From assembly GCA_965226205.1 (NCBI GenBank), contig CBDDCJ010000023.1, forward strand, positions 151,901 to 215,900: 64,000 nucleotides of DNA. Reading direction: 5' to 3'. The position numbers were made by a program, and so were the translations under genes. Positions 18,284-50,034 of this stretch are shown here, piece after piece. Position 1 is the stretch's first letter. Each line of letters opens with the position of its first letter. The DNA is from Opitutales bacterium (GTDB lineage: Bacteria; Verrucomicrobiota; Verrucomicrobiia; Opitutales; UBA2987). The notes under the pieces are model-generated. The model had not been told where the DNA came from. It made no database searches and saw only the letters and a list, made by a program, of their open reading frames with translations.

Positions 18284-18390
18284 AGAAAATCTGCTGGAAT
18301 ATGCTATGGTTGCGCTTTACGGGTCAAGGTTTAAGACGAGGCGGCAGGAAGCAGTCGAAAAATGAAAAAGTGAAGGAAAAAACGGAGGGC

Positions 18391-19155
18391 ATGGATACAT
18401 TCAATGTTTTGGGGGTAGCCGTTAGCAAATTGAACCTGCCATCGGCCCGGGAGAATATCCTGCAGGCTCTCGCCAGGGGGGAAAAAGGCTATGTTTGCGT
18501 GACGGGTGTCCATGGGGTCAGCGAAGCCCAAAATGATGCCGAATTTCGCGCCATATTAAATCGGGCTTTCTTGAACACTCCCGACGGGATGCCTCTGGTC
18601 TGGCTGGGGAAATATCGTGTCGGGCAAAATGTCAGCCGTGTTTATGGACCCGATTTAATGCTCGAAATATGTGCCGCAACGGAGAACAGCCCTTATCGCC
18701 ATTTTTTTTATGGAGGTGGCGCTGGAGTGGCGGAGACCCTTGGTTTAAAATTAAAAGAACATTTTCCCGGTTTGAAAATTGCCGGACATTATACGCCCCC
18801 TTATCGGCCTCTGTCTCAAACCGAAGAAAGCAAACTGGTGGAGCTTGTGGGAGAAAAAAAAACAGCGATCATTTGGGTGGGATTAAGCACTCCGAAACAG
18901 GAAAAATTTATGGCCGCTTATTTGCGCAAACTGGATACCACGCTCATGATTGGAGTCGGCGCGGCTTTCGATTTTCATGCCGGCACGGTTCGGCAAGCCC
19001 CGAAATGGATACAGCGCTCGGGCTTTGAATGGTTATTTCGTCTGTGTCAGGAACCGAAAAGACTTGGCAGAAGATACCTGAAAAACAATCCCTTGTTCCT
19101 CTTTAAGCTCGCCCTTCAAGCAACCGGTCTGAAAAAATTCCCCATCGAGCGTTAA
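18391..19155 (+). CDS. WecB/TagA/CpsF family glycosyltransferase (GT26)
   Basis: PDGMPLVW, RVYGPDLM, WVGLSTPKQE, GVGAAFDF, RQAPKWIQRSGFEWLFRL..EPKRL.RRY. Start placed at ATG 18391. Confidence 0.92.
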   Translation: MDTFNVLGVAVSKLNLPSARENILQALARGEKGYVCVTGVHGVSEAQNDAEFRAILNRAFLNTPDGMPLVWLGKYRVGQNVSRVYGPDLMLEICAATENSPYRHFFYGGGAGVAETLGLKLKEHFPGLKIAGHYTPPYRPLSQTEESKLVELVGEKKTAIIWVGLSTPKQEKFMAAYLRKLDTTLMIGVGAAFDFHAGTVRQAPKWIQRSGFEWLFRLCQEPKRLGRRYLKNNPLFLFKLALQATGLKKFPIER

Positions 19156-19195
19156 TACGAACCTATTTAATTTTATTTGGAGCAACCAACCAACT

Positions 19196-20200
19196 ATGGA
19201 AAAGAAAATAACGGTGGCCGGGGCTGGTGGGTTCATTGGCGGGCATTTGGTCAATTATCTGCGCTCGCGGGGTCATAAGGATTTGAGGGGAATCGACATT
19301 AAGCCGCTGGAACATTGGTTTCAGAGGTTTGAGGATGTGGAAAATCTGGTTCTCAATTTGCAAAAAGAGGAAGCCTGCCAAAAGGCGGTGGATGAGGCTG
19401 AAATCGTTTATAATTTGGCCGCCGACATGGGCGGCATGGGATTTATTGAAAAAAACAAGGCCCTCTGCATGTTGAGCGTGCTCATCAATACCCACTTGCT
19501 GGAAGCTTCCCGCCAAGCCGACGTGAGGAAGTTTTTCTATGCCTCATCGGCCTGCGTCTATGCCGCCGATAAGCAGAAAAGTGAAGATGTCATACCCCTG
19601 GCGGAGCCGGACGCCTATCCCTCCATGCCGGAGGATGGTTACGGTTGGGAAAAACTTTTCAGCGAACGCATGTGCCGCCATTATCATGAGGACTTCGGCC
19701 TGGAAATCGCGGTGGCCCGTTTTCACAATGTTTATGGGCCCCAGGGAACCTATGATGGCGGCCGCGAAAAAGCTCCCGCCGCCATTTGCCGAAAAATTAT
19801 CGACGCTGTCTTGAATGATTGCCTGGAAATCGAAATCTGGGGCGATGGCAAGCAAACGCGCAGCTTTACGTTTATCGACGATTGCCTCAATGGAATCGAT
19901 CGGCTCATGGGCAGCCATTTTCAGGAGCCCATCAACCTCGGCAGCAGCGAACTGGTTACCATCAATGGCCTCGTCGATATCGTTGAGGCCATCGCCGGGG
20001 TAAAGCTGAAACGGACCTACAATTTGGATGCTCCCAAGGGCGTCAACGGGCGCAACAGCGACAATACCCTCATAAAATCACTGTTTCAATGGGAACCATC
20101 GACCAGGCTGAAAGATTGGATGGAGGCGACCTATGCCTGGATTTATGACCGTATGGCAAATAAATCCAGCGCGAAAAGACACCGATTTACACGCCCTTGA
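19196..20200 (+). CDS. NAD-dependent epimerase, GDP-mannose 3,5-epimerase-like
   Basis: GAGGFIG, NLAADMGGMGFI, ASSACVY (Cys), YGWEK, GGREKAPAAICRK (Lys): the GM35E signature set. Confidence 0.85.
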   Translation: MEKKITVAGAGGFIGGHLVNYLRSRGHKDLRGIDIKPLEHWFQRFEDVENLVLNLQKEEACQKAVDEAEIVYNLAADMGGMGFIEKNKALCMLSVLINTHLLEASRQADVRKFFYASSACVYAADKQKSEDVIPLAEPDAYPSMPEDGYGWEKLFSERMCRHYHEDFGLEIAVARFHNVYGPQGTYDGGREKAPAAICRKIIDAVLNDCLEIEIWGDGKQTRSFTFIDDCLNGIDRLMGSHFQEPINLGSSELVTINGLVDIVEAIAGVKLKRTYNLDAPKGVNGRNSDNTLIKSLFQWEPSTRLKDWMEATYAWIYDRMANKSSAKRHRFTRP

Positions 20201-23783: not shown

Positions 23784-24135
23784 GAACCGAGCCTAGGGCC
23801 AGGCAACCTAATGAGTCGAATCGAAAATGAAAAAGCAGTAATATTGGTGAAATACTGCTGATTTGATCGAATAATAAGATAGTAAAATCCTAATGGAAGC
23901 AGAAAATAGGATTGAAATATTAGAAAATAGCTATTTTCAAGGATAGTGAATTTTCAGATGGGAAATCGCAATCAACAACAAATATAAGAGAATCACGTGT
24001 CCAACAAATCCAGTACACCTCAAACCAAAAAAGTGCTTTCATTGACAAAAACTGAATTTTACATCGCTTGTGCAGTTATTTTAGTCTTTGGGGTCGGATA
24101 TATCCTTCAGGTTTTTTCACCCTTGCGCCTAAATA

Positions 24136-25959
24136 GAGGCTGTCCCAAAAACCCGAATTTTGCGAGGGGATTTTGAAGAGTGTTCATTTTAGTGGTATTT
24201 TCTTTTGGGAGGGGGTGACTTTGCTCTCCTATGACGTTAGGATTCTGGTTTTGGGGTCCGTTTGCCTGGTTTTCTTTGTATGGGCCGACAGTAGGCCTGT
24301 GAAAAAGTATTGTCCTTGCTTTTCCGCTCTTTATTTAGGCCGCCGCTTTGGTTTTTAGTTCATCTTGCTGGGCCAGCATCTTGGCCACTTTCCATAGATT
24401 GTGCGAGAGGACCGACCAGGCTACGCTGATCGAGCGGTTGGCAAAGCCTTTGCTGCGCAATCGCCCGGCCTGCCAGCGATTCTTCAATACCCCGATCCGC
24501 CCTTCGGTGCTGGCCCGGCGCTTTTGCAATTGCCTGAAGTGTGGTTCCTCCATCCGTTTTTTCAACTGCTTCGGATCGCGTGGACAGAGCGCATCGTAGA
24601 TGCCCTCCTGGGCTAACTGCCGGCGGGCCCGCTGGGAGGCGAATCCCCGGTCCGCGCACATGGCCGCTATGGGTTCGGCTAGGTTGAAGCGGTTCTGTCT
24701 TTGCAAACTCTCTTGCATTTGTTCATTTTCGCTTGGCGTCCGGCTGCCGTAGAGTTTCCAGTCCAGCAGGTATCCTTCAACGCTTTCACCCAAAAACAGG
24801 GTGTTGCCAAACTCAACCTCTTGGCCCGCTTTGCCTCGCACAATCACCTGCGCATTGGGTTCGTAAACACTCAAAACTTTCTCTGCGTTTTTCACCTGGC
24901 GGCCGCCAATGATTCGCTCGTGCGCTTGCTTGATGACCACCGGGATTAGCTCGCTCATGCGCTCCATCCGGGTAAGGATCTGTTGGACCTGTTTTTCGCT
25001 GTAATCGCTTTGCTCCCAGCAGGCTTGCAATAATTCCCGGTGACTGCGGGCATGCTCCCCGATCCGTTTGAGCAGCTTTTTCATCTGCCTCAAGATACCC
25101 TTGCGTTGCCGCGCGCTGTCCTTTCGCCGCCGGCTGTGGGTCATCTGTATGCACAGCCGATTCATCTGCCGAGCCAAGGGCTCCGGTTCGATCGGCATGC
25201 GATGGCGCAAACCGGCCTTCTCACGGATCAGCCGGATCGCTTTGAGCAGCGTGCCCGCTACATCCTTGAGCAGCACCCAGTCCGTCGGCCAATGAATGTT
25301 GACCTCCAAACAGGTGCCGTCGATCAGGCAAATGGTGGTGTCTATCGGCTTGTCCAATCCCACCACCTGCCGGGCCAGATCGGCATCGCCCACAACCTCA
25401 GTCAAGGTCCGGTGCAAGGCCCTCAACTGCTCTTCGCTGAAAAACTTCGAGGCCCGTTCCAGGGTGCTCTTGGAGATGCCCCTTATGCCGTCGATATGGC
25501 GGACACGACAAAAGTCAGCCAACAGATCGCTGCTGCCCAGAGCCCTCGACAAATGCCGAAACGAAATCCCACCGAGCAGATAACGCAGCGTTTCCATACG
25601 CAACGCCTTGAGGGCAAAATTAGCCCGCTTTTGCCGGGCCTTTACACTCATTGGCTGGCCTCTTTCCAAGGCCAGATCAACGCCCTGCGATTCCACCTCC
25701 GAATCGATCAGCAGCCGGTCGATACGCTCGATGGTGGCGCGAAAGTTATCGTAATCGAGGCAACGGTCGACCACAGTTAAAGCTGGACGCAGGAGGCATT
25801 GGATGGCTATATTTTTCATAGAAAGGGCTATATTGATTTTCGCTAACGCAATTATAGAACCCTTTTTTAGCCGGATCGAGCAAAAAAATGCTCTTTCCGG
25901 CTATTTTTATAAACGTCATCCAGTTGACTACAAAATCTTTATATTTTTGGGACAGCCTC
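24136..25959 (-). mobile_element. IS5-family insertion sequence, copy 1 (1824 bp)
   Basis: Terminal IRs GAGGCTGTCCCAAAA (24136) and TTTTGGGACAGCCTC (ending 25959); same length as and near-identical to 31683-33506, in inverted orientation. Flanks CTAAATA / TATGGTA are not a direct repeat. Confidence 0.93.
24335..25819 (-). CDS. IS5-family DDE transposase (494 aa)
   Basis: DDE motifs LIDGT, CADRGF, STEGRIG; IHWPTD..LL and GKAGQEVEFG typical of long IS5-type transposases. Confidence 0.9.
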   Translation of the reverse strand: MKNIAIQCLLRPALTVVDRCLDYDNFRATIERIDRLLIDSEVESQGVDLALERGQPMSVKARQKRANFALKALRMETLRYLLGGISFRHLSRALGSSDLLADFCRVRHIDGIRGISKSTLERASKFFSEEQLRALHRTLTEVVGDADLARQVVGLDKPIDTTICLIDGTCLEVNIHWPTDWVLLKDVAGTLLKAIRLIREKAGLRHRMPIEPEPLARQMNRLCIQMTHSRRRKDSARQRKGILRQMKKLLKRIGEHARSHRELLQACWEQSDYSEKQVQQILTRMERMSELIPVVIKQAHERIIGGRQVKNAEKVLSVYEPNAQVIVRGKAGQEVEFGNTLFLGESVEGYLLDWKLYGSRTPSENEQMQESLQRQNRFNLAEPIAAMCADRGFASQRARRQLAQEGIYDALCPRDPKQLKKRMEEPHFRQLQKRRASTEGRIGVLKNRWQAGRLRSKGFANRSISVAWSVLSHNLWKVAKMLAQQDELKTKAAA

Positions 25960-26245
25960 TATGGTAGTGGAGTAGTTTGAAACCGAATTGTAGCAGACTA
26001 TTTTCTTGGTTTAATCATTGGAGTGCCTGAGATTTATACTTACCTCATATTAATGAATATATCGATTGTTTACACTATTGGAGGATGGCCGATTTATAAA
26101 ACAGCTAATAGGGTTGTATATCAATCCATTGATAGAGAACCCTTCAATATCTATATGAAAGCGAATGTATTTGTGATTGTTGAAATGGACGGGGAAAACT
26201 GGACAGTGGAATAAGGTGGTCTTGAACCACTAAATCCTCTAACCT

Positions 26246-26551
26246 ATGAATGTTATTAAATCACGAAAGAGAAGACAATACAGTGCTGAGTTTAAAGCCC
26301 GAGTGGCCCTGGAAGCCATCAGGGGCGCTCATACCATCAACGAGATCGCCGGTCGTTTTGAGGTGCATCCCAACCAGGTGACCCAATGGAAGAAGCAGCT
26401 TTTGCAGGGAGCAACGGAGCTGTTTTCGCGCCAGCGGCAGACTCTCAGCAAGGACAACGAGACGGAAAAAGATCACCTTTACCAGGAGATTGGAAAGCTG
26501 AAAGTAGAATGCGATTGGCTAAAAAAAAAGTCTGAACAACTCGGTTGGTGA
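26246..26551 (+). CDS. IS3-family transposase OrfA (HTH)
   Basis: RRQYSAEFKARVALEA...EIAGRFEVHPNQVTQWKK; ends WLKKKS over an A9G run (26521-26530). Confidence 0.9.
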   Translation: MNVIKSRKRRQYSAEFKARVALEAIRGAHTINEIAGRFEVHPNQVTQWKKQLLQGATELFSRQRQTLSKDNETEKDHLYQEIGKLKVECDWLKKKSEQLGW

Positions 26552-26561
26552 GAGGCGCAAG

Positions 26562-27425
26562 ATGGTGCAACCACTTCAAAGAAAAATCAGTATCGGCAGG
26601 CAATGTCAGTTGCTGGGGCTGGCCCGCGGCAGCTATTACTATCGGGCCCGTGCCCAGTGCGAGCAGAACGTTCTCTACATGCATCGCATGGATGAGCTCT
26701 ACACCCAATATCCGTTTTTTGGTTCTCGCCGGATGACCCAGTGGCTGCGTCGAGAGGGCCATGCAGTGGGACGAGGCCGCATCCAGCGGCTCATGCGCCA
26801 AATGGGCCTGGAGGCTATTTATCCGCGTCGAAACTTGAGCCAGGGGCACCGGCAGCACCGCATTTTCCCTTATCTGCTGCGGGGTTTGGCGGTCGAGCGG
26901 CCCGACCAGGTATGGTGCAGCGACATCACTTACCTGCGGCTGAGCCGAGGATTCCTTTTCTTGACCGTGGTGTTGGACTGGTTCAGCCGCTACGTGTTGA
27001 GCTGGCAGCTTTCCAACACCCTGGAGAGCCGCTTCTGTGTGCTCGCCCTGGAGGAAGCTCTGAGGCGGGCCCAACCTCAAATCTTCAACACCGATCAAGG
27101 CAGCCAGTTTACTGGCAGCGAGTTCACCTCGGTGCTGGGGCAAGCCGGGGTGCGCATCAGCATGGACGGGCGTGGCCGCTACCTGGACAACATATTTGTT
27201 GAACGCTTTTGGAGAACCCTCAAGTATGAAGACATTTACCTGCGCGAATACGCCACGGCAAAGGAAGCCAGCGAAGGGATAGCCCGCTACCTGGACTTCT
27301 ACAACCACCTGCGCCCCCACCAAGCCCTGGGCTACCGGACCCCGGCCGAAGTCCATGCAATCGGAGCAAAACCAACCTCCCCGCCAATACAGCTTGCGGG
27401 CACCTGCGTGCCCGTCTTTGGCTAA
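26562..27425 (+). CDS. IS3-family transposase OrfB (integrase core)
   Basis: RQCQLLGL, YPFFGSRRM, QVWCSDITY, DWFSRYV, FNTDQGSQF, DNIFVERFWRTLKYE, YNHLRPHQAL. Frame is open from 26523. Confidence 0.92.
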   Translation: MVQPLQRKISIGRQCQLLGLARGSYYYRARAQCEQNVLYMHRMDELYTQYPFFGSRRMTQWLRREGHAVGRGRIQRLMRQMGLEAIYPRRNLSQGHRQHRIFPYLLRGLAVERPDQVWCSDITYLRLSRGFLFLTVVLDWFSRYVLSWQLSNTLESRFCVLALEEALRRAQPQIFNTDQGSQFTGSEFTSVLGQAGVRISMDGRGRYLDNIFVERFWRTLKYEDIYLREYATAKEASEGIARYLDFYNHLRPHQALGYRTPAEVHAIGAKPTSPPIQLAGTCVPVFG

Positions 27426-27776: not shown

Positions 27777-29141
27777 ATGGAAACCGGAAAGGATACAGGG
27801 AGACGGGGGATCGTTAAACGATTGAGGAAATTAAGGAAAAGCTGGGACAAGGTTTATTTCATAATGGCTATAGCTATGGTGATATTTGCTTACGGTATGG
27901 CGGTCGGAAGGTTTGAGATATTTCCTTATCAAATAGTGAAGAGTTCTGCGAAGACGGCTAGAAACTGGATAATCTTTTATAAGCACTATCTGGGGATAAA
28001 ACCGATAAAACATATAAGCAAGGCCCGGCACAAAGGAGAAACCATAGAAACTTATCTTCCGGACAAAACCTATGAAGGAGTTACCTTTATCGTAAGTATG
28101 TGGGATCATACCCTCGGCATGAAATTAATCGATATGGATGGTTCGGTGATTCATAAATGGAGGGTATCATTCAGTGAGACTTTCTCCGAAGAATTCCAGA
28201 AGGGGATTAGGGAAATCGATGATTGGGATGTAGATATCCATGGAACCCTTTTGTATCCAAACGGCGATGTAGTTTTTAATTTTGCACGTAAGGGGCTGGT
28301 GAAAATTGATAAATGGTCGAAAGTTATCTGGAAGCTGCCCAACAGAACTCATCATTCCATATTTGAGGACACTGAAGGTAACTTGTGGGTGCCTGCAACC
28401 AAAACACATAGTCATGTGTTGAACCGATTTCCTCTATTGAAGGCACCAATCCAAGAAGATTTGATACTCAAAATATCGCCTTCAGGGAATATTTTAAAGC
28501 AAATCTCTATTCTTGATATCTTCTATAATTCAGGACAGGAGGGGGTACTTTTTGCGAATGGGCATTTCAAACCCAGTCAAATAGCAAGAGACATCACGCA
28601 TTTAAACGACATCGAGATTCTAGATGAATCCATGGCAGATCAATTTCCTTTATTTGAAGCTGGCGATATATTGATAAGTTTGAGGCACCTAAATCTGATT
28701 ACGGTTATCGATCATGTAACAGAAAAGATAAAATGGTCGATGACAGGGCCCTACATTCGGCAACATGATCCCGACTTTCTTAGCAACGGGCAGATTATGG
28801 TATTTGATAATCGCACTGATGGTTCGGGGGGGGATATTCTGGGTGGCAGCCGCATTCTTAGCATTGACCCGGTTATGCGAAAAGTGCATACCATCTATAA
28901 AGGAGGCCCCCAGAACAAGTTTTATACGAAAGTTCGAGGCAAACAGCAACAGCTTCCCAACGGAAATATTCTAATTACCGAGCACGACGCCGGAAGAGTG
29001 TTTGAAGTCGCTTCATCCGGTGAAATCGTATGGTCCTACCATAACAGGTATGATGAGGACGAAGTATACGAAATTACTCAAGCAACGCGACTGGAGCGTG
29101 ATTACATTACATTTACAGAAGTAAAAGTACCTGAAAACTGA
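27777..29141 (+). CDS. Arylsulfate sulfotransferase (ASST, PAPS-independent, beta-propeller), N-terminally membrane-anchored
   Basis: One TM helix near the N-terminus, then THHSI, DITHLNDI, ISLRHL, RQHDPDF, VFDN, QQLPNGNILITE: His/Asn/Arg/His motifs in ASST order. Confidence 0.8.
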   Translation: METGKDTGRRGIVKRLRKLRKSWDKVYFIMAIAMVIFAYGMAVGRFEIFPYQIVKSSAKTARNWIIFYKHYLGIKPIKHISKARHKGETIETYLPDKTYEGVTFIVSMWDHTLGMKLIDMDGSVIHKWRVSFSETFSEEFQKGIREIDDWDVDIHGTLLYPNGDVVFNFARKGLVKIDKWSKVIWKLPNRTHHSIFEDTEGNLWVPATKTHSHVLNRFPLLKAPIQEDLILKISPSGNILKQISILDIFYNSGQEGVLFANGHFKPSQIARDITHLNDIEILDESMADQFPLFEAGDILISLRHLNLITVIDHVTEKIKWSMTGPYIRQHDPDFLSNGQIMVFDNRTDGSGGDILGGSRILSIDPVMRKVHTIYKGGPQNKFYTKVRGKQQQLPNGNILITEHDAGRVFEVASSGEIVWSYHNRYDEDEVYEITQATRLERDYITFTEVKVPEN

Positions 29142-29171
29142 AACAGATGTAAAGATAATTGAATTTGAGCT

Positions 29172-29444
29172 ATGAATGCAATACGGATTACAATGGAAAT
29201 TTGGCAGACCGTTCTTTTATTTGATTTGAGCGGCTTTTCCAATGCAGTCGCTTACATCGGGCCTGGTGGAGGCATTACGCTGTTGGGCGCTTTGTTTGCC
29301 GTGCTACTTGCAATATTGCTCGTAGTGGGCGGTATCCTCGTATGGCCCGTCCGGGTTTTATTAAGGCGTATGAAACGCAAGGCCAGGCCTCCCGAAGATG
29401 CAGAAGAGGGAGCGCCGGAAAGTGAAGATGGCACGGAATGTTGA
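29172..29444 (+). CDS. Small membrane protein with AYIGPG motif
   Basis: AVAYIGPGGG followed by one long TM helix, basic RRMKRK and an acidic tail. Alternative start 29193. Confidence 0.7.
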   Translation: MNAIRITMEIWQTVLLFDLSGFSNAVAYIGPGGGITLLGALFAVLLAILLVVGGILVWPVRVLLRRMKRKARPPEDAEEGAPESEDGTEC

Positions 29445-30202
29445 ACATTGTTTTCCAGTTGTTCACCGCTATCGATTTATGGATTGCATTATTTCTGCCG
29501 TTGTATGGGCGCTTATTGCTTTGGGGCGCGGTCGCGGGAGTGGCAGCCATGGGCATTTATGCCGCCGTATCTAACCAGAGCGCCATAGCGGCGCTGAAGA
29601 CGAAAACTAAAAACCTCAGACGCCAGATGCTTGATCCTTCACTTGAGAAGGGCTCAGAGTTTGCCGCATTAGCGAAGGCCAATCTCAAGACATCACTGTT
29701 ATATCTGGGTAAAGTGATTGGCCCGGCCTTGCTTTCAACGCTTCCAGTGTTGCTCTTAGCTGTGTGGCTTGATACTTATCATGGTTATGAACTTGCGGAA
29801 GATCGGGAAGAGGTATTCGTTAGTATAGTTCCCTCTCATCTTGATTTCGATATTATCCCCGCGGAGATAGTGCGCCTTAAAGAGATGGGCGTTGTGAACA
29901 TCGAGCCGGTAGAGCGCGGGGACGCCATTACGGTTAGAACAGGCGGCGAGACGATTTATTCCGGCCCACTTTTAGAAAATCCGGTACCTGTTATCAAAAA
30001 AAAGAATTGGTGGAACCTGTTGCTTGCGTCCCAAGCCGGATATATCGTATCCACTTCAGCGATCGAGGGAATTCATGTGAATTTGGCAAGAAAGAAAGTG
30101 TTAGGACGATTCCCTGATTGGGCGGCGGGATGGGAGGGGGCATTTTTTATGAGTGTGCTTATAACGACATTAGCGTTTAAAGCTGTGTTCAAGATTCATT
30201 GA
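29438..30202 (+). CDS. Hypothetical membrane protein (DUF106/EMC3-like topology in the N-terminal half)
   Basis: TM, basic coiled coil (ALKTKTKNLRRQML), TM, soluble domain, C-terminal TM; start overlaps the previous gene by 7 bp. Confidence 0.6.
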   Translation: MLNIVFQLFTAIDLWIALFLPLYGRLLLWGAVAGVAAMGIYAAVSNQSAIAALKTKTKNLRRQMLDPSLEKGSEFAALAKANLKTSLLYLGKVIGPALLSTLPVLLLAVWLDTYHGYELAEDREEVFVSIVPSHLDFDIIPAEIVRLKEMGVVNIEPVERGDAITVRTGGETIYSGPLLENPVPVIKKKNWWNLLLASQAGYIVSTSAIEGIHVNLARKKVLGRFPDWAAGWEGAFFMSVLITTLAFKAVFKIH

Positions 30203-30243
30203 AAGAGACGAACCCAGTCAGTCACTGACTGTGGGTAATTGCA

Positions 30244-31335
30244 ATGCAGGTATCACGCTTTAAAGACTTTCTCGGAGGGTTGGCAGCACGAAATACCGCG
30301 TTTTTTCTGAAGTTGGGCAATATCGAATCTCGATGGCTGAAAGATGCCATTAAGGAAAAGGAGGTTGACCGGCCAATATATATATGCGGATTAGCGCGCT
30401 CAGGGAGCACGATCCTGCTTGAGCTGCTGGCGGCCCATCCCGATGTGGCATCCCATCAGTACAAGGATTTTCCGCTCGTTTTTACGCCATTCTGGTGGAA
30501 CTGGTTTCTGAACCGAGCGAGTAGCGGAAAGGATGAGCTTGTTGAACGAGCGCACAAAGACCGAATCCAAGTTTCGCCGGATAGCCCTGAAGCGATGGAG
30601 GAGATGCTTTGGATGGCTTTTTTTTCACGGAGCCATGATGCAGCGGCCAGTCAAATTATTGGCGCAAGTGACCGTAAACCGGAATTCGATCATTTTTACC
30701 GGGAGCACATAAGAAAGATTCTGTATTTGAGGGATGGGAGAAGGTACATTGCCAAGGGTAATTATAATATCAGCAGGCTTGGGTATTTGGCCGATCTATT
30801 TCCGGATGGGCGTTTCCTTATTCCCGTTCGCGATCCGGCCAGTCATATCGCATCGCTTATGAAACAGCATGAGAATTTTTGTGATGCGGAAACGCGGGAT
30901 CCCAAGGTTCTGGCCTATATGCGGAGAGCGGGGCATTTTGAATTTGGCCTGGACCGAAGAGCCATTAATTTTGGTCGTAGCGATGCGTTACAACGGATAG
31001 AGAACCTGTGGAAGCAGGGGCAGGAAATCAGGGGTTGGGCTGCTTATTGGGCGTCATTACATTCATTTGTGGCAGATCTCTTTGAGAGCGAAGAGCCGGC
31101 AGCGGATATGATGCTGCTAATAGATTACGGCGCTTTCTGTAAAGAACCTGTCAGGATGCTGCAACGGATTTATGCTCATTGTCAGCTTGAAGCTGGAGAT
31201 AGTGTTATTCGGGAGCAAGCATCTCGGATAAGCGCTCCCGATTATTACAATGCCGGTTTTACCGACAGCGAGATAGAGATTATTAATGAGGAAACGGCCG
31301 AAATCGCGGAGCGAATCCAGAGGCTGATTTCGTAA
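30244..31335 (+). CDS. PAPS-dependent sulfotransferase
   Basis: 5'-PSB loop RPIYICGLARSGSTILLELL and 3'-PB motif IPVRDPASHIAS; no signal peptide. Confidence 0.88.
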   Translation: MQVSRFKDFLGGLAARNTAFFLKLGNIESRWLKDAIKEKEVDRPIYICGLARSGSTILLELLAAHPDVASHQYKDFPLVFTPFWWNWFLNRASSGKDELVERAHKDRIQVSPDSPEAMEEMLWMAFFSRSHDAAASQIIGASDRKPEFDHFYREHIRKILYLRDGRRYIAKGNYNISRLGYLADLFPDGRFLIPVRDPASHIASLMKQHENFCDAETRDPKVLAYMRRAGHFEFGLDRRAINFGRSDALQRIENLWKQGQEIRGWAAYWASLHSFVADLFESEEPAADMMLLIDYGAFCKEPVRMLQRIYAHCQLEAGDSVIREQASRISAPDYYNAGFTDSEIEIINEETAEIAERIQRLIS

Positions 31336-31682
31336 TGGGAATGGAAATATTTACGGCTAATCTTACTTGTTAACCCATCAGCCTAAACGTTACGGCAATC
31401 GGCCGCAATAGACCTTTGTGTCGTATTCGAAATGGATCAGACCATCCACCTCGCGCCGGTCGAAAATTTCATTCATTCGTTTCAGCATGGGCTCGTAATT
31501 GGGATGATCGGGGGCTGGGGTATAGGAAGAGGAAAACAAACGTCCGGTCAAACCGTCGCGGTTTAAAGGCTGTATATATTCAAATTCGCCATATTTAATT
31601 TGGGTATGGCCGAAAAATTCTTGCATCTCCTCAAGGCCCAAACCACGATGGAGAACCTTTCCATATTCGATGCCGTATTTTA

Positions 31683-33506
31683 GAGGCTGTCCCAAAAATA
31701 TAAAGATTTTGTAGTCAACTGGATGACGTTTATAAAAATAGCCGGAAAGAGCATTTTTTTGCTCGATCCGGCTAAAAAAGGGTTCTATAATTGCGTTAGC
31801 GAAAATCAATATAGCCCTTTCTATGAAAAATATAGCCATCCAATGCCTCCTGCGTCCAGCTTTAACTGTGGTCGACCGTTGCCTCGATTACGATAACTTT
31901 CGCGCCACCATCGAGCGTATCGACCGGCTGCTGATCGATTCGGAGGTGGAATCGCAGGGCGTTGATCTGGCCTTGGAAAGAGGCCAGCCAATGAGTGTAA
32001 AGGCCCGGCAAAAGCGGGCTAATTTTGCCCTCAAGGCGTTGCGTATGGAAACGCTGCGTTATCTGCTCGGTGGGATTTCGTTTCGGCATTTGTCGAGGGC
32101 TCTGGGCAGCAGCGATCTGTTGGCTGACTTTTGTCGTGTCCGCCATATCGACGGCATAAGGGGCATCTCCAAGAGCACCCTGGAACGGGCCTCGAAGTTT
32201 TTCAGCGAAGAGCAGTTGAGGGCCTTGCACCGGACCTTGACTGAGGTTGTGGGCGATGCCGATCTGGCCCGGCAGGTGGTGGGATTGGACAAGCCGATAG
32301 ACACCACCATTTGCCTGATCGACGGCACCTGTTTGGAGGTCAACATTCATTGGCCGACGGACTGGGTGCTACTCAAGGATGTAGCGGGCACGCTGCTCAA
32401 AGCGATCCGGCTGATCCGTGAGAAGGCCGGTTTGCGCCATCGCATGCCGATCGAACCGGAGCCCTTGGCTCGGCAGATGAATCGGCTGTGCATACAGATG
32501 ACCCACAGCCGGCGGCGAAAGGACAGCGCGCGGCAACGCAAGGGTATCTTGAGGCAGATGAAAAAGCTGCTCAAACGGATCGGGGAGCATGCCCGCAGTC
32601 ACCGGGAATTATTGCAAGCCTGCTGGGAGCAAAGCGATTACAGCGAAAAACAGGTCCAACAGATCCTTACCCGGATGGAGCGCATGAGCGAGCTAATCCC
32701 GGTGGTCATCAAGCAAGCGCACGAGCGAATCATTGGCGGCCGCCAGGTGAAAAACGCAGAGAAAGTTTTGAGTGTTTACGAACCCGATGCGCAGGTGATT
32801 GTGCGAGGCAAAGCGGGCCAAGAGGTTGAGTTTGGCAACACCCTGTTTTTGGGTGAAAGCGTTGAAGGATACCTGCTGGACTGGAAACTCTACGGCAGCC
32901 GGACGCCAAGCGAAAATGAACAAATGCAAGAGAGTTTGCAAAGACAGAACCGCTTCAACCTAGCCGAACCCATAGCGGCCATGTGCGCGGACCGGGGATT
33001 CGCCTCCCAGCGGGCCCGCCGGCAGTTAGCCCAGGAGGGCATCTACGATGCGCTCTGTCCACGCGATCCGAAGCAGTTGAAAAAACGGATGGAGGAACCA
33101 CACTTCAGGCAATTGCAAAAGCGCCGGGCCAGCACCGAAGGGCGGATCGGGGTATTGAAGAATCGCTGGCAGGCCGGGCGATTGCGCAGCAAAGGCTTTG
33201 CCAACCGCTCGATCAGCGTAGCCTGGTCGGTCCTCTCGCACAATCTATGGAAAGTGGCCAAGATGCTGGCCCAGCAAGATGAACTAAAAACCAAAGCGGC
33301 GGCCTAAATAAAGAGCGGAAAAGCAAGGACAATACTTTTTCACAGGCCTACTGTCGGCCCATACAAAGAAAACCAGGCAAACGGACCCCAAAACCAGAAT
33401 CCTAACGTCATAGGAGAGCAAAGTCACCCCCTCCCAAAAGAAAATACCACTAAAATGAACACTCTTCAAAATCCCCTCGCAAAAATCACCCTTTTGGGAC
33501 AGCCTC
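31683..33506 (+). mobile_element. IS5-family insertion sequence, copy 2 (1824 bp)
   Basis: IRs GAGGCTGTCCCAAAA / TTTTGGGACAGCCTC; flanked by TATTTTA at 31676-31682 and 33507-33513. Confidence 0.95.
31823..33307 (+). CDS. IS5-family DDE transposase (494 aa), copy 2
   Basis: Identical to copy 1 except EPD vs EPN; at least one synonymous difference (CTA vs CTG Leu). Confidence 0.9.
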   Translation: MKNIAIQCLLRPALTVVDRCLDYDNFRATIERIDRLLIDSEVESQGVDLALERGQPMSVKARQKRANFALKALRMETLRYLLGGISFRHLSRALGSSDLLADFCRVRHIDGIRGISKSTLERASKFFSEEQLRALHRTLTEVVGDADLARQVVGLDKPIDTTICLIDGTCLEVNIHWPTDWVLLKDVAGTLLKAIRLIREKAGLRHRMPIEPEPLARQMNRLCIQMTHSRRRKDSARQRKGILRQMKKLLKRIGEHARSHRELLQACWEQSDYSEKQVQQILTRMERMSELIPVVIKQAHERIIGGRQVKNAEKVLSVYEPDAQVIVRGKAGQEVEFGNTLFLGESVEGYLLDWKLYGSRTPSENEQMQESLQRQNRFNLAEPIAAMCADRGFASQRARRQLAQEGIYDALCPRDPKQLKKRMEEPHFRQLQKRRASTEGRIGVLKNRWQAGRLRSKGFANRSISVAWSVLSHNLWKVAKMLAQQDELKTKAAA

Positions 33507-33513
33507 TATTTTA

Positions 33514-33811
33514 GAGGCTGTCCCAAAGTTATAACCATTTGTTTTACAGTAAGTTAACTTGTTTATAAAGCTGTCATAAAGACCGTTTTTAGGGGATTTT
33601 GGGCAATTTCGATGTCTATAACACCGTCAGCCTTTCTCTTGTTTTGCATATTCAAATACAATTCTACCATAGACCTCTGTCTGACGCGATTATATTTATA
33701 ACGAATAGAGGCCTTATACAGCGTTTTTGACGGAATTGAATGACTTACGTTCCCTTACAGTTCGGAGTCGAATATCTCAATTTGCAAAATTCGGGTTTTT
33801 GGGACAGCCTC
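33514..33811 (+). mobile_element. 298-bp non-autonomous element (MITE) with IS5-type ends
   Basis: Begins GAGGCTGTCCCAAA, ends TTTTTGGGACAGCCTC; AT-rich interior with no ORF in the track; flanked by TATTTTA (33507-33513, 33812-33818). Confidence 0.88.
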
Positions 33812-34420
33812 TATTTTAAGAGCATTTCTTCATAATCGCTTAAAAATGGCGTTGAGAGATGCCTGCGGGCGTTCCACAGCACAGCCGCATAACCATCCGG
33901 TTTCAGAACCCTTTCAAATTCACGGCGGGCCGGCACCGGCTCGAACCAGTGAAAAGCCTGGGCCGCCGTAACCAGATCCACCGACGACTTGGGAAGATGG
34001 GTATTTTCGGCCTGTCCGTCGATCGCCCGAAATGGATCGAATCGAGTTAAAAATGCCTCCCCCGCCTCGCGCATTTCCCGATTGGGCTCCACCCCCCAAA
34101 CCGGGTAATTCCGCTCCAACAGCAGTTTGGCAAAGAGGCCGGTGCCGCACCCGATGTCGGCAATGACCGAATCCCGTGACAAACCGCATTTTTCTTCCAG
34201 GAAGTCGATTGCCTGGGGCGGATAAGAAGGTCTATATTTGCGGTAATCATCGACGCGGCTGGAAAATCTGGCGGTGGGATCGAGCATCTTTTTTGAAGAT
34301 TTTGATAACCGTTTCAGCCGGAACCGCAATTAGATACGAAGGCCGCAGGTCGTTTTTTCTGGAATTGTGCCGCTCTCTTCTATAAATCCAATCAGCTTTG
34401 AACCATTGACTGACTCTGAC

Positions 34421-47016: not shown

Positions 47017-48342
47017 TCAATCGCTCAACAAAAGCCTGACATCTCCTTTGGCTCTGGTCAGGGAGAGGCGGCTGAGGTTATATTGATATCGGATTTCGAT
47101 CATTTCATCGCTGGCGTCGGCCAGGGCGGCCAGGGCGTCGATGATTTCCCGGTTGTCGGCCACTCCTTCGGTAAATCGGGTGCGGGCCAAATCGAGTTCC
47201 TCTTCGCTCAGTTCCACCCTTTTTCGGGTGATGCCGATTTGGTCGTAGCGTGAGCGGGCGTCCTGCAGGGCCAGTTTATAATCGGCCCCGACCTGGTTTT
47301 CAATGTTTTGAATGACCAGTTCCTGGGCGTGTATGAGGGCTTCGGCCCGGCGTTTGTTGGAGCGGATGCGATGTCCTTCGAATATGGGCAGGCTCATGGA
47401 TATGCCGGTCAACCAGGCATTCCGGTCGCACCCGTCGAAGGCGGTCTCGGTGGCATATCCCCACTCGCCGAAGAAGTTGATGCTGGGCAGTCTCTCCAAC
47501 CCCGCATATTTGCGCGCGGCCAGATTTCGCTCCAGCCGCTCGACGGCAATGAGGTAGTTCGGACGGGCCTCCAGCAAAGCCGTCCGGTTGTATTCTTGAC
47601 GATGAAACTGGATCGGTTTCAAGCGTTCGGTGGATTGCAGGCGCAGTTGAGCATCCAGATCGAGATCGAGCAGGAGTTGGAAACGGAGGGCGCTTTCCAA
47701 AACGATGGTATCTTGCTGCAGGCGCTGCTTTTGATCGGTGGCCACCCCGGCATTGAGCTGGTTGATGGCCAGATCGAGGAGGGCTTCATCGCGTTCGATA
47801 TTGGCATCGAGCACGTCGATGCGTTTGAGGTTGCGCAAATGGCTGTAAAACGCATTGGCGGCATTATTCAGGCTGTCTTGCAGCACACTCTCCAGGGTCA
47901 GCTCGGAAATATGATGGTTGTAGCGGGACAATCGCCAGGTGGCGTAATTGACTACATTGATCAAAGGCACGGTGCCGACCATCTTTCCATCGAACCGGTT
48001 GACCGGAGGGGAGCTGGGAAATTCGAATCCAAATCCGACCGGAGCAATCTGGGTGCGTATCTGGGCGGCATCGAAGGAAATCCGGGGGATCAGTTCCGCG
48101 CGGTCCCTCAAGGCAATTTGAAAAGCCTCCTCGACCGCCTGCCTCTGGATGAGCACTTCGAGGTTTTGTTTTTCAATCCAGGTAAAAGTCTCCGCCAGGT
48201 TAAGGCTGACCACTTCGCCCGAAAGAGGATTGAGCAAAGGCCCGCAAACCATCGCCAAAAGAGAAGCCGGAAAAAACTTGAGCTTGCCTCGAAAGGAAAA
48301 TTGGGGTCTTAAAGCTCTGGAAATTTTAGTTATTTGTTTCAT
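47017..48342 (-). CDS. TolC-family outer membrane efflux protein
   Basis: Signal peptide, OEP repeats ([31 protein letters not shown]). Start placed at ATG 48342 (48366 possible). About 12 aa appear missing in repeat 1. Confidence 0.82.
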
Positions 48343-48393
48343 AATTATGTCCGCTATTTTAGCCATAAAAACCTCTCGATTCAGGGCAGAGCA

Positions 48394-50034
48394 ATGAAAA
48401 TCGGCCTGGCCCAGATAAACACCATCGTCGGCGATCTGCCGGGAAACCGGCACAAGATAATCGATGCCTACCGCCAACTTTGTGAAAATGGAGCGGAGCT
48501 GGTTGTATTCCCGGAGCTGGCCGTTTGCGGTTATCCCCCCAGAGACTTGCTGAGCAAGAGCCGTTTCGTCCCCGACAACGAAACCTCGTTACAGGAAATT
48601 GCGGCCCAGTGCGGGCAAACGCCACTCCTCATCGGTTTCGTGGAACAAAATCACTCCGGCAAAGGCAGAGACTACTACAACGCCGCCGCCTGGTGCGCCG
48701 GTGGTGGTGTGGTCAAAACTTTTCAAAAATGCCTTTTGCCCACCTATGATGTTTTTGACGAAGTGCGGCATTTTCACGAGGCCGCCGATCCGCGTTTCAT
48801 GGAATTTAAAGGATGCCGCATCGGGATCACCATTTGCGAAGACATCTGGACGGCCCGGTTTGTGGACACGCGCCAAAGGTATGATTTCGACCCGGTCGAG
48901 GCGCTTTCCAGGATGGAACTCAACCTTCTGGTAAACCTCTCGGCCAGCCCCTGGCAATATGGCAAAAAAGCGTTCCGCCAAAATCTGGTCGTCAGCGCGG
49001 CCGAACGCTGCCGCTGCCCTGTCGTTTTTTGCAACGCCGTGGGGGGAAATGATGAACTCATTTTCGACGGGCACAGCATGGCGGTCAAAGCCGAGGGGAA
49101 AGTGGTCGCCGCTCTGGCCGGTTTCCGCGAAGAGTGCGCGGTTATCGATACCGAATCCAGCGAAGAATACATTTCCACCACTTTCCACCAAGATCCGATG
49201 GCCGATATACACGACGCCCTCGTCCTCGGATTGAGGGATTACGCTCACAAATGTGGATTTCGAAAAGCCCTCCTCGGTTTGAGCGGGGGCATCGATTCAG
49301 CCGTCACGGCGGCTTTGGCGGCGGACGCGCTGGGACCGGAAAATGTCATCGGCATCAGCCTCCCCTCCTCTATTTCCAGCCGGCACAGCCGGGATGACGC
49401 CGCCGCCCTGGCCGCCAACCTGGGCATCGAGTACCAAACGCTTCCCATTTCGGAATTGGTCTCCGCTGCCGATAAAACGCTCTCGCCGATTTTCGAGGGC
49501 CGCTCGGCGGACGTGACGGAGGAGAATGTGCAGGCCCGCAGCCGAGGCCTTCTGCTCATGGCGGTTTCCAACAAATTCGGGGCCCTCCTTTTGTCCACCG
49601 GCAACAAGAGCGAATTGGCGGTGGGCTATTGCACGCTTTACGGGGACATGTGCGGTGGACTGGCCGTGATTTCCGATCTGCCCAAGGTCAAAGTTTACGA
49701 ACTGGCCCGGTGGATGAATCGCAACGGCGAGGTCATCCCCGTGAACACCATCGAAAAAGCGCCTTCGGCAGAACTGCGCCCCGACCAAAAAGACGAGGAT
49801 TCACTGCCGCCCTACGATATCCTGGACGCCATCCTGGCCCTCTATGTAGAAGAAGGGAAATCCTCACAGGAAATCACCGAAGCCGGGTTTGACCCCGAAA
49901 TCGTCCGGGACATCATCCGCAAGGTTGATCTCAACGAATACAAGCGCCAACAAGCCGCCCCCGGCTTGAAAATCACACCCCTGGCATTCGGGGTAGGAAG
50001 GCGCATCCCCATCGTCCAAAAATACATCGGATAA
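48394..50034 (+). CDS. nadE: Glutamine-dependent NAD+ synthetase
   Basis: Nitrilase domain ([18 protein letters not shown]) fused to the synthetase domain ([41 protein letters not shown]). Confidence 0.96.

Follow-up and report, generated by a model that had tools for sequence, protein, structure and literature searches.

In bacteria 3'-phosphoadenosine 5'-phosphosulfate (PAPS) is confined to the cytoplasm, which raises the question of how these organisms could add sulfate to molecules after their export. A second question comes from the arylsulfate sulfotransferases (ASSTs), because the physiological donors and acceptors are unknown for almost all the bacterial enzymes of this type (PMC13426309). 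Both questions meet in a cluster of four genes found in a stretch of 64,000 nucleotides from an Opitutales bacterium (assembly GCA_965226205.1, contig CBDDCJ010000023.1, positions 151,901 to 215,900 of the forward strand), the whole of which is called here the window. The genes code for a predicted ASST, a microprotein, a polytopic membrane protein and a predicted PAPS-dependent sulfotransferase, each from an open reading frame (ORF) of the length given:

27777-29141, plus strand: ASST gene, 454 aa ORF
29172-29444, plus strand: microprotein gene, 90 aa ORF
29438-30202, plus strand: polytopic membrane protein gene, 254 aa ORF
30244-31335, plus strand: sulfotransferase gene, 363 aa ORF

The spacings between the four genes are, in order, 30, -7 and 41 nt, and no terminator-like site is found on the plus strand within the cluster. 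The GC content is 42-48% over the region 27-32 kb versus about 50-60% in its flanks, and two near-identical copies of an insertion sequence (IS), each of 1,831 nt and in inverted orientation, bracket the cluster on both sides. A preliminary description, made from the letters of this DNA, had pointed to four co-oriented and closely spaced genes in an AT-richer, IS-rich island, which the ORFs, the GC profile and the IS copies bear out. It had also read their products as a membrane-anchored ASST with His, His-x-Asn, Arg and His motifs, a small membrane protein with an AYIGPG motif, a multi-transmembrane protein and a signal-less sulfotransferase with intact PAPS motifs. These four descriptions hold for the proteins as they are presented below.

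In caprazamycin biosynthesis Cpz8 sulfates triketide pyrones and Cpz4 takes the resulting phenolic sulfates as donors (PMC4257720), a pairing through a sulfate shuttle to which the preliminary description had also pointed. The answer favoured here, to which a probability of about 0.58 is given, is that the four genes code for a trans-membrane version of the Cpz8/Cpz4 two-step sulfation in which envelope glycans would be modified. A tyrosine of the microprotein is the preferred, though less probable, candidate for the carrier.

The product of the first gene matches Pfam families PF14269 (Arylsulfotran_2; E 3e-42, 145 bits against a cutoff of 27) and PF05935 (Arylsulfotrans; E 4e-17, 62.7 bits against a cutoff of 24.2). 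It belongs to a family of about 1,400 clusters at 50% identity (E <= 1e-30). The protein has a single transmembrane segment (residues 26-44) and 10 of the 25 residues that precede it are lysine or arginine; the positive-inside rule therefore predicts that its amino terminus lies in the cytoplasm and its beta-propeller in the periplasm. A TolC-family outer-membrane gene found in the window (47017-48477) indicates a diderm host, so that the term periplasm is applicable.

An AlphaFold2 model of the ASST obtained with 60 relatives has a mean predicted local distance difference test score (pLDDT) of 93.9 and a predicted template modelling score (pTM) of 0.90. The five top Foldseek matches of the model are structures of Cpz4 and of the Escherichia coli ASST (E 2e-16 to 3e-12). 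Cpz4 is the best match among PDB structures (9KF6/9KF4; E 2e-16, template modelling score 0.55), with about 17% sequence identity, and is followed by the E. coli enzyme (E about 2e-12). The preliminary assignment of the propeller to the ASSTs is thereby supported at the level of both fold and profile. In a family profile alignment the invariant Q329-H330-D331 falls on Q435-H436 of E. coli ASST, and that stretch of the alignment is lost with the chain of the H436N mutant. His436 is the catalytic histidine of the E. coli enzyme and is kept in all known aryl sulfotransferases (ASTs) (PMC13426309). H330 (codon 28764-28766) is the predicted sulfo-histidine of the window ASST.

Among the 60 relatives H192/H193, H275-x-N277, R303 and Q329-H330-D331 are conserved or invariant, and N345 and E410 are likewise invariant or nearly so. 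The E. coli enzyme has further sulfate-binding residues (His252, His356 and Arg374); H193, H275-x-N277 and R303 of the window protein follow one another in the same order, in a comparison that covered the order alone. Sequence motifs and modelled fold together predict that the propeller is a Cpz4-like, PAPS-independent ASST held at the periplasmic face by its transmembrane anchor.

The sulfotransferase matches Pfam family Sulfotransfer_3 (PF13469; E 4e-19, 70 bits against a cutoff of 27). The residues of its 5'-phosphosulfate-binding motif (5'-PSB; R52-x-G54-S/T-T56) and 3'-phosphate-binding motif (3'-PB; R196...S204) are invariant in 40 relatives, as are E101-R102-x-H104-x-D106, E119/E120 and H231. 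The best sequence matches in the PDB are the tyrosylprotein sulfotransferases TPST1/2 (E 6e-5), and the segments GLARSGST and IPVRDPASHIASL align with the PSB and PB loops of TPST1. Assignment as a true orthologue of TPST or RaxST was not adopted since the alignment covers the PAPS loops alone. No hydrophobic window of the protein reaches 1.5, and neither a signal-like amino terminus nor a transmembrane segment is found. It is predicted to be a cytoplasmic PAPS-type enzyme.

The preliminary description had supposed that sulfate may pass from cytoplasmic PAPS through a membrane carrier to an extracytoplasmic acceptor such as a glycan or lipid, and had made this reading depend on whether the four families co-occur elsewhere and on whether the two enzymes face different compartments. 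Both checks, like that of the propeller as an ASST, came out in its favour at the level of sequence and structure prediction. A search based on patterns from an alignment of 10 ASST sequences gave 80 metagenomic loci, mostly on short contigs, whose ASSTs have 41-63% identity to that of the window. The microprotein gene is present in 53 of them, the sulfotransferase gene in 32 and the gene of the third, polytopic protein in 12, while 10 loci have all four genes. When loci with at least 400 nt on each side of the ASST gene are considered, the microprotein is present in 32 of 37. With at least 2.5 kb on each side the figures are 14 of 15 for the microprotein, 10 of 15 for the sulfotransferase and 11 of 15 for some polytopic partner. 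In the 80 loci the microprotein gene is nearly always directly beside the ASST gene. Another search, started from the polytopic protein, found a metagenomic locus (L001) in which the four genes keep the order of the window and their products have 49-59% identity to the window proteins.

The gene orders seen are ASST-microprotein-polytopic protein-sulfotransferase, microprotein-polytopic protein-sulfotransferase-ASST and sulfotransferase-ASST-microprotein. Recurrence on many unrelated contigs places the arrangement far beyond chance, and the conservation of gene content despite a reshuffled order favours a common function over shared ancestry of one operon. In two loci (L030 and L048) the sulfotransferase and ASST genes overlap by 4 nt, forming translationally coupled junctions.

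The two activities are also found in one polypeptide. Protein P0357 (956 aa), encountered once among the ASST representatives examined, is a single chain composed of a three-transmembrane protein of 124-aa type, a Sulfotransfer_3 domain, one transmembrane helix and an Arylsulfotran_2 propeller. Its membrane part has 41% identity to the 124-aa-type protein of locus L031 (E 2e-16) and its Sulfotransfer_3 part has 34% identity to the window sulfotransferase (E 2e-49). This natural fusion is a strong argument for coupling of both enzymes, and the helix between its enzyme domains implies that sulfotransferase and ASST lie on opposite faces of the membrane. The placement agrees with the topology predicted for the separate window proteins, the ASST with its amino terminus in and its propeller out, and the sulfotransferase with neither transmembrane segment nor signal. 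The PAPS enzyme and the ASST are genetically coupled across many lineages.

Two variations of the enzyme genes were seen in these loci. Two loci (L063:2336-5090 and L069:2-2262) have a tandem pair of ASST paralogues ahead of one microprotein gene. Two others (L031:9549-10511 and L035:9549-10496, minus strand) carry a second, distant sulfotransferase gene (E about 1e-7 to the window enzyme), convergent and right after the sulfotransferase gene of the module.

The four-part composition initially described does recur but is less fixed than it appeared. Other proteins can stand in for the 254-aa protein, 5 of the 15 well-flanked loci have no related sulfotransferase gene within about 7 kb and the ASST is swapped for other enzymes in Gammaproteobacteria. 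The microprotein, which had been regarded as a minor component, is instead the constant element of the module.

The microprotein has a hydrophobic start that resembles a signal peptide and ends in A-V-A, followed by Y28-I-G-P-G-G-G, a strong transmembrane segment and a basic then acidic tail that is predicted to be cytoplasmic. The motif A27-Y28-I-G-P-G thus immediately precedes the membrane segment (Tyr28 codon 29253-29255). An alternative ATG at 29193 would yield a form of 83 aa, as in a sister strain. The tyrosine is invariant in all 64 unique homologues from the collected loci, while alanine occupies position -3 in 50 and position -1 in 57 of them. This alanine pattern points to a site of signal peptidase I type, and the tyrosine would therefore be the first mature residue, at the periplasmic surface of the membrane. 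Cleavage just before Tyr28 is inferred from the sequence. Outside the cytoplasm the mature protein would expose no more than about 7 residues, and the surroundings of the tyrosine are not acidic. The family comprises at least 2,319 clusters; the 120 entries among the matches listed are all of 70-95 aa and none is informatively named.

The 254-aa protein has 3-4 hydrophobic segments and a beta-rich loop domain of roughly 105 residues. Two amino-terminal hydrophobic helices are followed by a basic helical hairpin, a transmembrane segment, the beta domain and a carboxyl-terminal transmembrane segment. In its AlphaFold2 model (pLDDT 86.9, pTM 0.76) the basic hairpin is predicted to be cytoplasmic and the beta domain periplasmic. 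The protein has no match in Pfam or NCBIfam, and Foldseek finds no PDB structure at E <0.1. Its 308 relatives include proteins labelled 'DUF106' by JGI, but these labels are unsupported. Assignment as an Oxa1/EMC3 (DUF106) insertase was rejected, as PF01956 (EMC3_TMCO1) matches only one of 11 members (E 0.09) and no Oxa1-like fold is found by Foldseek.

In the loci inspected the genes of the 254-aa family always adjoin those of the microprotein and the sulfotransferase. Other proteins take this place elsewhere, namely a 124-aa protein with three transmembrane segments in 10 loci, a 244-aa membrane protein, and a membrane domain of about 260 residues fused to the amino terminus of the sulfotransferase (L030, L080 and L082). 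Profile comparison by hhalign aligns the 254-aa family colinearly with the 244-aa protein and the fused domain over 192 columns, a weak match with a probability of 4% and E 0.009, and gives no match between the 254-aa and 124-aa families. The partners are treated as positional analogues and not as one family. Judged by gene position and by the fusions, in which the sulfotransferase domain comes after a basic stop-transfer stretch, the 254-aa protein probably tethers the sulfotransferase to the membrane or is its partner there. The role shared by the polytopic partners is inferred to be to hold the sulfotransferase at the cytoplasmic face of the membrane.

How could these proteins work together? 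By analogy with the caprazamycin enzymes, the module is rather more probably than otherwise a coupled trans-membrane sulfation relay. A cytoplasmic sulfotransferase would spend PAPS to form an aryl sulfate, and the periplasmic ASST would then move the sulfuryl group through sulfo-His330 to an acceptor beyond the reach of PAPS. The 254-aa protein would tether the sulfotransferase to the membrane, a function that would be served elsewhere by the analogous membrane domain fused to the sulfotransferase amino terminus. The carrier in this scheme would be Tyr28 of the microprotein, sulfated and positioned at +1 of the AxA site on the periplasmic surface of the membrane. Its loading might occur before export or through a conduit built by the membrane partners.

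Sulfotyrosine is an aryl sulfate and belongs to the donor class of ASSTs. Bacterial ASTs act on tyrosine peptides and on tyrosine methyl ester (PMC13426309). The carboxyl-terminal tyrosine of DltX/PatA was proposed to be an acyl shuttle between an enzyme fed from the cytoplasm and an extracytoplasmic transferase in MBOAT-SGNH envelope acylation (PMC12148441). These three points are the reason to favour a tyrosine carrier, together with the fact that the microprotein accompanies each of the two enzymes in separate lineages. The tyrosine carrier is nevertheless a tentative proposal, drawn by analogy. A broader form of the proposal, in which the 70-95-aa AxA-Y[VI]GPGAG microproteins are protein-borne sulfuryl carriers whose PAPS-sulfated tyrosine is the donor to the ASST, or to alkaline-phosphatase-superfamily enzymes in Gammaproteobacteria, is about equally tentative.

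Several observations weigh against the proposed relay with its tyrosine carrier. Tyrosine and sulfotransferase are predicted to lie on different sides of the inner membrane, the former in the periplasm and the latter in the cytoplasm, and loading the one directly from the other would take an additional, unexplained step. With 3-4 transmembrane segments the polytopic partners are small, and they have no detectable homology among themselves, which argues against a single conserved conduit. The likeness of the sulfotransferase to the TPSTs is limited to the PAPS-binding motifs, in two stretches of about 38 residues that contain the PSB and PB loops. The 5 well-flanked loci with ASST and microprotein and no related sulfotransferase within about 7 kb imply that the ASST-microprotein pair may function alone. 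Conversely, the gammaproteobacterial triad of sulfotransferase, microprotein and polytopic protein accompanies enzymes of the alkaline-phosphatase superfamily instead of an ASST. In the window itself, neighbouring genes for a GT-C glycosyltransferase and a methyltransferase were destroyed by IS activity. With the loss of these two possible pathway neighbours the system is perhaps incomplete in this strain, though the four core genes are intact.

The next most probable reading keeps the relay and replaces the tyrosine with a phenol that is small or soluble in lipid, such as a quinol or another common aromatic metabolite. After sulfation by the membrane-tethered enzyme the phenol would be flipped or exported, much as in Cpz8/Cpz4, and the two membrane proteins would serve as scaffold or flippase. 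Such a scheme is nearest to the only characterised precedent (PMC4257720), whose ASST, Cpz4, is the best fold match of the window propeller. A membrane-resident substrate would fit a sulfotransferase that in every case has a membrane protein as its tether or fusion partner, and the difficulty of loading a periplasmic tyrosine is sidestepped. A phenol carrier leaves unexplained, on the other hand, the invariant tyrosine at +1 of the AxA site in 64 of 64 microproteins and the near-obligate adjacency of ASST and microprotein, which persists even where no sulfotransferase is nearby. No gene for a dedicated phenolic shuttle recurs as a neighbour either: neither a type III polyketide synthase (PKS) nor another gene of this kind is found at the window locus or among the neighbour families that recur in at least 3 loci. 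This alternative is considered unlikely.

It is also conceivable that there is no relay. The ASST and the microprotein would then use aryl sulfates from the environment, and the sulfotransferase would act on its own upon a cytoplasmic precursor, perhaps a nucleotide sugar or a glycan linked to a lipid; the genes would cluster only through the sulfated envelope product that both serve. Where bacteria sulfate glycans, the precursors are usually modified in the cytoplasm. Each enzyme is moreover found apart from the other, as ASST-microprotein loci lacking a nearby sulfotransferase (5 of 15) and as the triad of sulfotransferase, microprotein and membrane protein without ASST in Proteobacteria. 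What makes such independence quite improbable is that the single-chain fusion P0357 is hard to account for without direct cooperation; the translationally coupled sulfotransferase-ASST junctions with 4-nt overlaps carry the same weight, and the microprotein is tied to both enzymes in separate lineages.

RaxX is sulfated by RaxST, and a parallel case in which the microprotein is the end product, its tyrosine being sulfated for signalling or surface charge and the ASST editing or removing the sulfate, would accommodate the invariant tyrosine and the TPSTs as best PDB sequence matches of the sulfotransferase, but it is very improbable given the mere 7 or so extracytoplasmic residues, the lack of an acidic context round the tyrosine, neighbours that are polysaccharide genes and not peptide exporters or proteases, and a sulfuryl-transferring propeller that is left unexplained as the most constant partner.

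The preferred reading, a relay from PAPS to the periplasmic ASST, has to accommodate the many proteobacterial loci found by the search from the polytopic protein that retain only the sulfotransferase, the microprotein and the polytopic protein. In the gammaproteobacterial variant (L006, L009, L010, L012 and L014-L023; for example L017:4354-9988), which always adjoins tadA-guaA-guaB, the place of the ASST is occupied by a PF01663 lipoprotein of roughly 630 aa and a PF00884-domain protein. The genes of these two proteins precede those of the sulfotransferase, the microprotein and a 253-aa protein, in this order. Often the region 5' of this variant also has a further, divergent pair of sulfotransferase and PF01663 genes and a gene for a TonB-dependent receptor. 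The C/S-x-P-x-R (formylglycine) motif is absent from the PF00884 protein, which rules out true formylglycine sulfatases.

The gene context points to an exported envelope polysaccharide as the most likely acceptor, because the neighbours of the module are envelope-polysaccharide genes. A Wzy_C-type gene lies immediately 5' of the ASST gene in four loci, and GT4 glycosyltransferases are among the recurrent or adjacent genes of the ASST loci. In locus L080 (4793-9305), and also in L082, the module, whose sulfotransferase is here fused to a membrane domain, is directly followed by genes for an ABC exporter of O-antigen type (Wzm/Wzt, with a Wzt_C domain) and for a heparinase II/III-like protein. 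Alphaproteobacterial loci have rml genes and a GT2 gene beside the module, GtrA and GT-C genes flank it in L001, and a GT-C gene is next to the cluster in L105, a sister strain of the window organism.

The window also has a gene for a glycosyltransferase of the WecG/TagA/CpsF family (EpsA-like), about 8-9 kb upstream of the module (18301-20200). Beside it lies a gene whose counterpart in the sister strains L104 and L105 is annotated as an NAD-dependent epimerase.

The surroundings of the cluster were remodelled by mobile elements, whose positions and those of the disrupted genes are as follows:

23997-24135, plus strand: 5' remnant of a GT-C (PMT_2-like) gene, about 46 codons (tblastn 88% identity over residues 1-51)
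24131-25961, minus strand: left IS copy, coding for a 494-aa DDE transposase and interrupting the PMT_2-like GT-C glycosyltransferase gene
26246-27425, plus strand: IS3-family orfA/orfB element, just 5' of the four-gene cluster
31390-31680, minus strand: carboxyl-terminal fragment of a class I methyltransferase gene, from translated ORFs
31681-33511, plus strand: right IS copy, within the class I methyltransferase gene
about 33811-34329, minus strand: amino-terminal fragment of the methyltransferase gene, from translated ORFs

The GT-C gene of the window is cut at 24135, after about 46 codons, by the left IS copy and its remainder is deleted. In L105 the gene is whole (455 aa) and precedes the cluster; its product matches Pfam PMT_2 with E 2e-5, under the curated cutoff. 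The methyltransferase gene is likewise undisrupted in L105 (237 aa), and Pfam Methyltransf_11/23/25 match the L104 and L105 orthologues of the split methyltransferase. L104 has the same IS pair. L105 lacks it, with the cluster at an unchanged position in the chromosome, and has an rve/HTH (helix-turn-helix) gene by Pfam at the position equivalent to the IS3-type element.

Could the IS pair have moved the cluster as one unit? The right copy splits the methyltransferase gene, whose halves lie inside and outside the pair, and L105 has the cluster without the pair, so that this did not happen. No target-site duplication is seen, since neither the flanks of the left copy nor the outer flanks of the pair match. 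A composite transposon carrying the cluster is thus ruled out.

The two IS copies differ at 5 positions inside 7 nt near one end (24151-24157 versus 33485-33491) and by two single substitutions (24856 and 25271), one of which leads to an N/D difference between the 494-aa transposases. A lone IS terminal inverted repeat (TAGAGGCTGTCCCAAAG) at 33512-33528 in the window, 3 nt past the end of the right copy, suggests an earlier insertion or a rearrangement there. In L105 two gene calls of the module are shorter, the sulfotransferase having only 240 aa (L105:11173-11895) and the ASST 425 aa; this could reflect real decay or an error of long-read assembly.

The module is widespread, with about 1,400 ASST clusters and at least 2,300 microprotein clusters. 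As a PAPS enzyme is linked with a periplasmic ASST, in one fusion even within a single chain, both the sulfation of exported molecules and the nature of ASST donors and acceptors can be put to a direct test with four small genes. Should the relay be true, sulfation would join glucosylation, acetylation, D-alanylation and phosphoethanolamine addition among the envelope modifications that depend on a carrier and occur after export. The relay could then account for sulfated polysaccharides of environmental bacteria and might be used to develop PAPS-regenerated ASST systems for biocatalytic sulfation. If the tyrosine carrier is also true, sulfotyrosine would act as a catalytic intermediate in the passage of sulfate through the inner membrane and on to the glycans of the envelope. 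Sulfation would then have its own equivalent of the acyl-tyrosine shuttle of DltX, and a physiological donor would for the first time be identified for a large family of ASSTs.

The preliminary description had not recognised the four-gene arrangement as a described system, and no description of the module was found in the papers searched on its enzymes, its Pfam family and the shuttle concept. The module would extend the known two-step sulfation from PAPS to an ASST, and would be categorically new if the tyrosine carrier holds.

The known system closest to it is the Cpz8/Cpz4 pair of Streptomyces sp. MK730-62F2, which also joins the genes of a PAPS-dependent sulfotransferase and of a PAPS-independent ASST and whose logic, from PAPS to an aryl sulfate, the ASST and a final acceptor (PMC4257720), is the one proposed here. 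The window module differs from it by lacking a type III PKS or other shuttle-making gene, by adding two dedicated membrane proteins and by its setting among envelope polysaccharide genes, not in an antibiotic cluster. Its enzymes are moreover predicted to lie on opposite sides of the membrane, the ASST being anchored by its amino-terminal transmembrane segment.

The E. coli AssT (PDB 3ELQ, 3ETT and 4P05) is also an extracytoplasmic beta-propeller, whose His436 is aligned with H330. It is a soluble, Sec-exported and disulfide-dependent dimer of PF05935 type, with 571 residues and no known physiological donor, whereas the window ASST has 454 aa, is of PF14269 type and membrane-anchored, and is encoded beside the gene of a PAPS enzyme.

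DltX/PatA resembles the module in logic only, as a membrane microprotein or tail with an invariant extracytoplasmic tyrosine. The group proposed to be carried by the window microprotein is sulfuryl instead of acyl, its motif is an amino-terminal AxA-Y[VI]GPGAG instead of the carboxyl-terminal FxYxxF, and the loci inspected show no gene for an MBOAT or SGNH partner. The Gtr system (GtrA/GtrB/GtrC) has in common with the sequence proposed for the module a cytoplasmic activation, carriage across the membrane and transfer onto an exported glycan. None of the four window proteins is related to Gtr proteins, and in Gtr the carrier is undecaprenyl phosphate and the group a sugar, where the module would transfer sulfate, possibly from a protein tyrosine.

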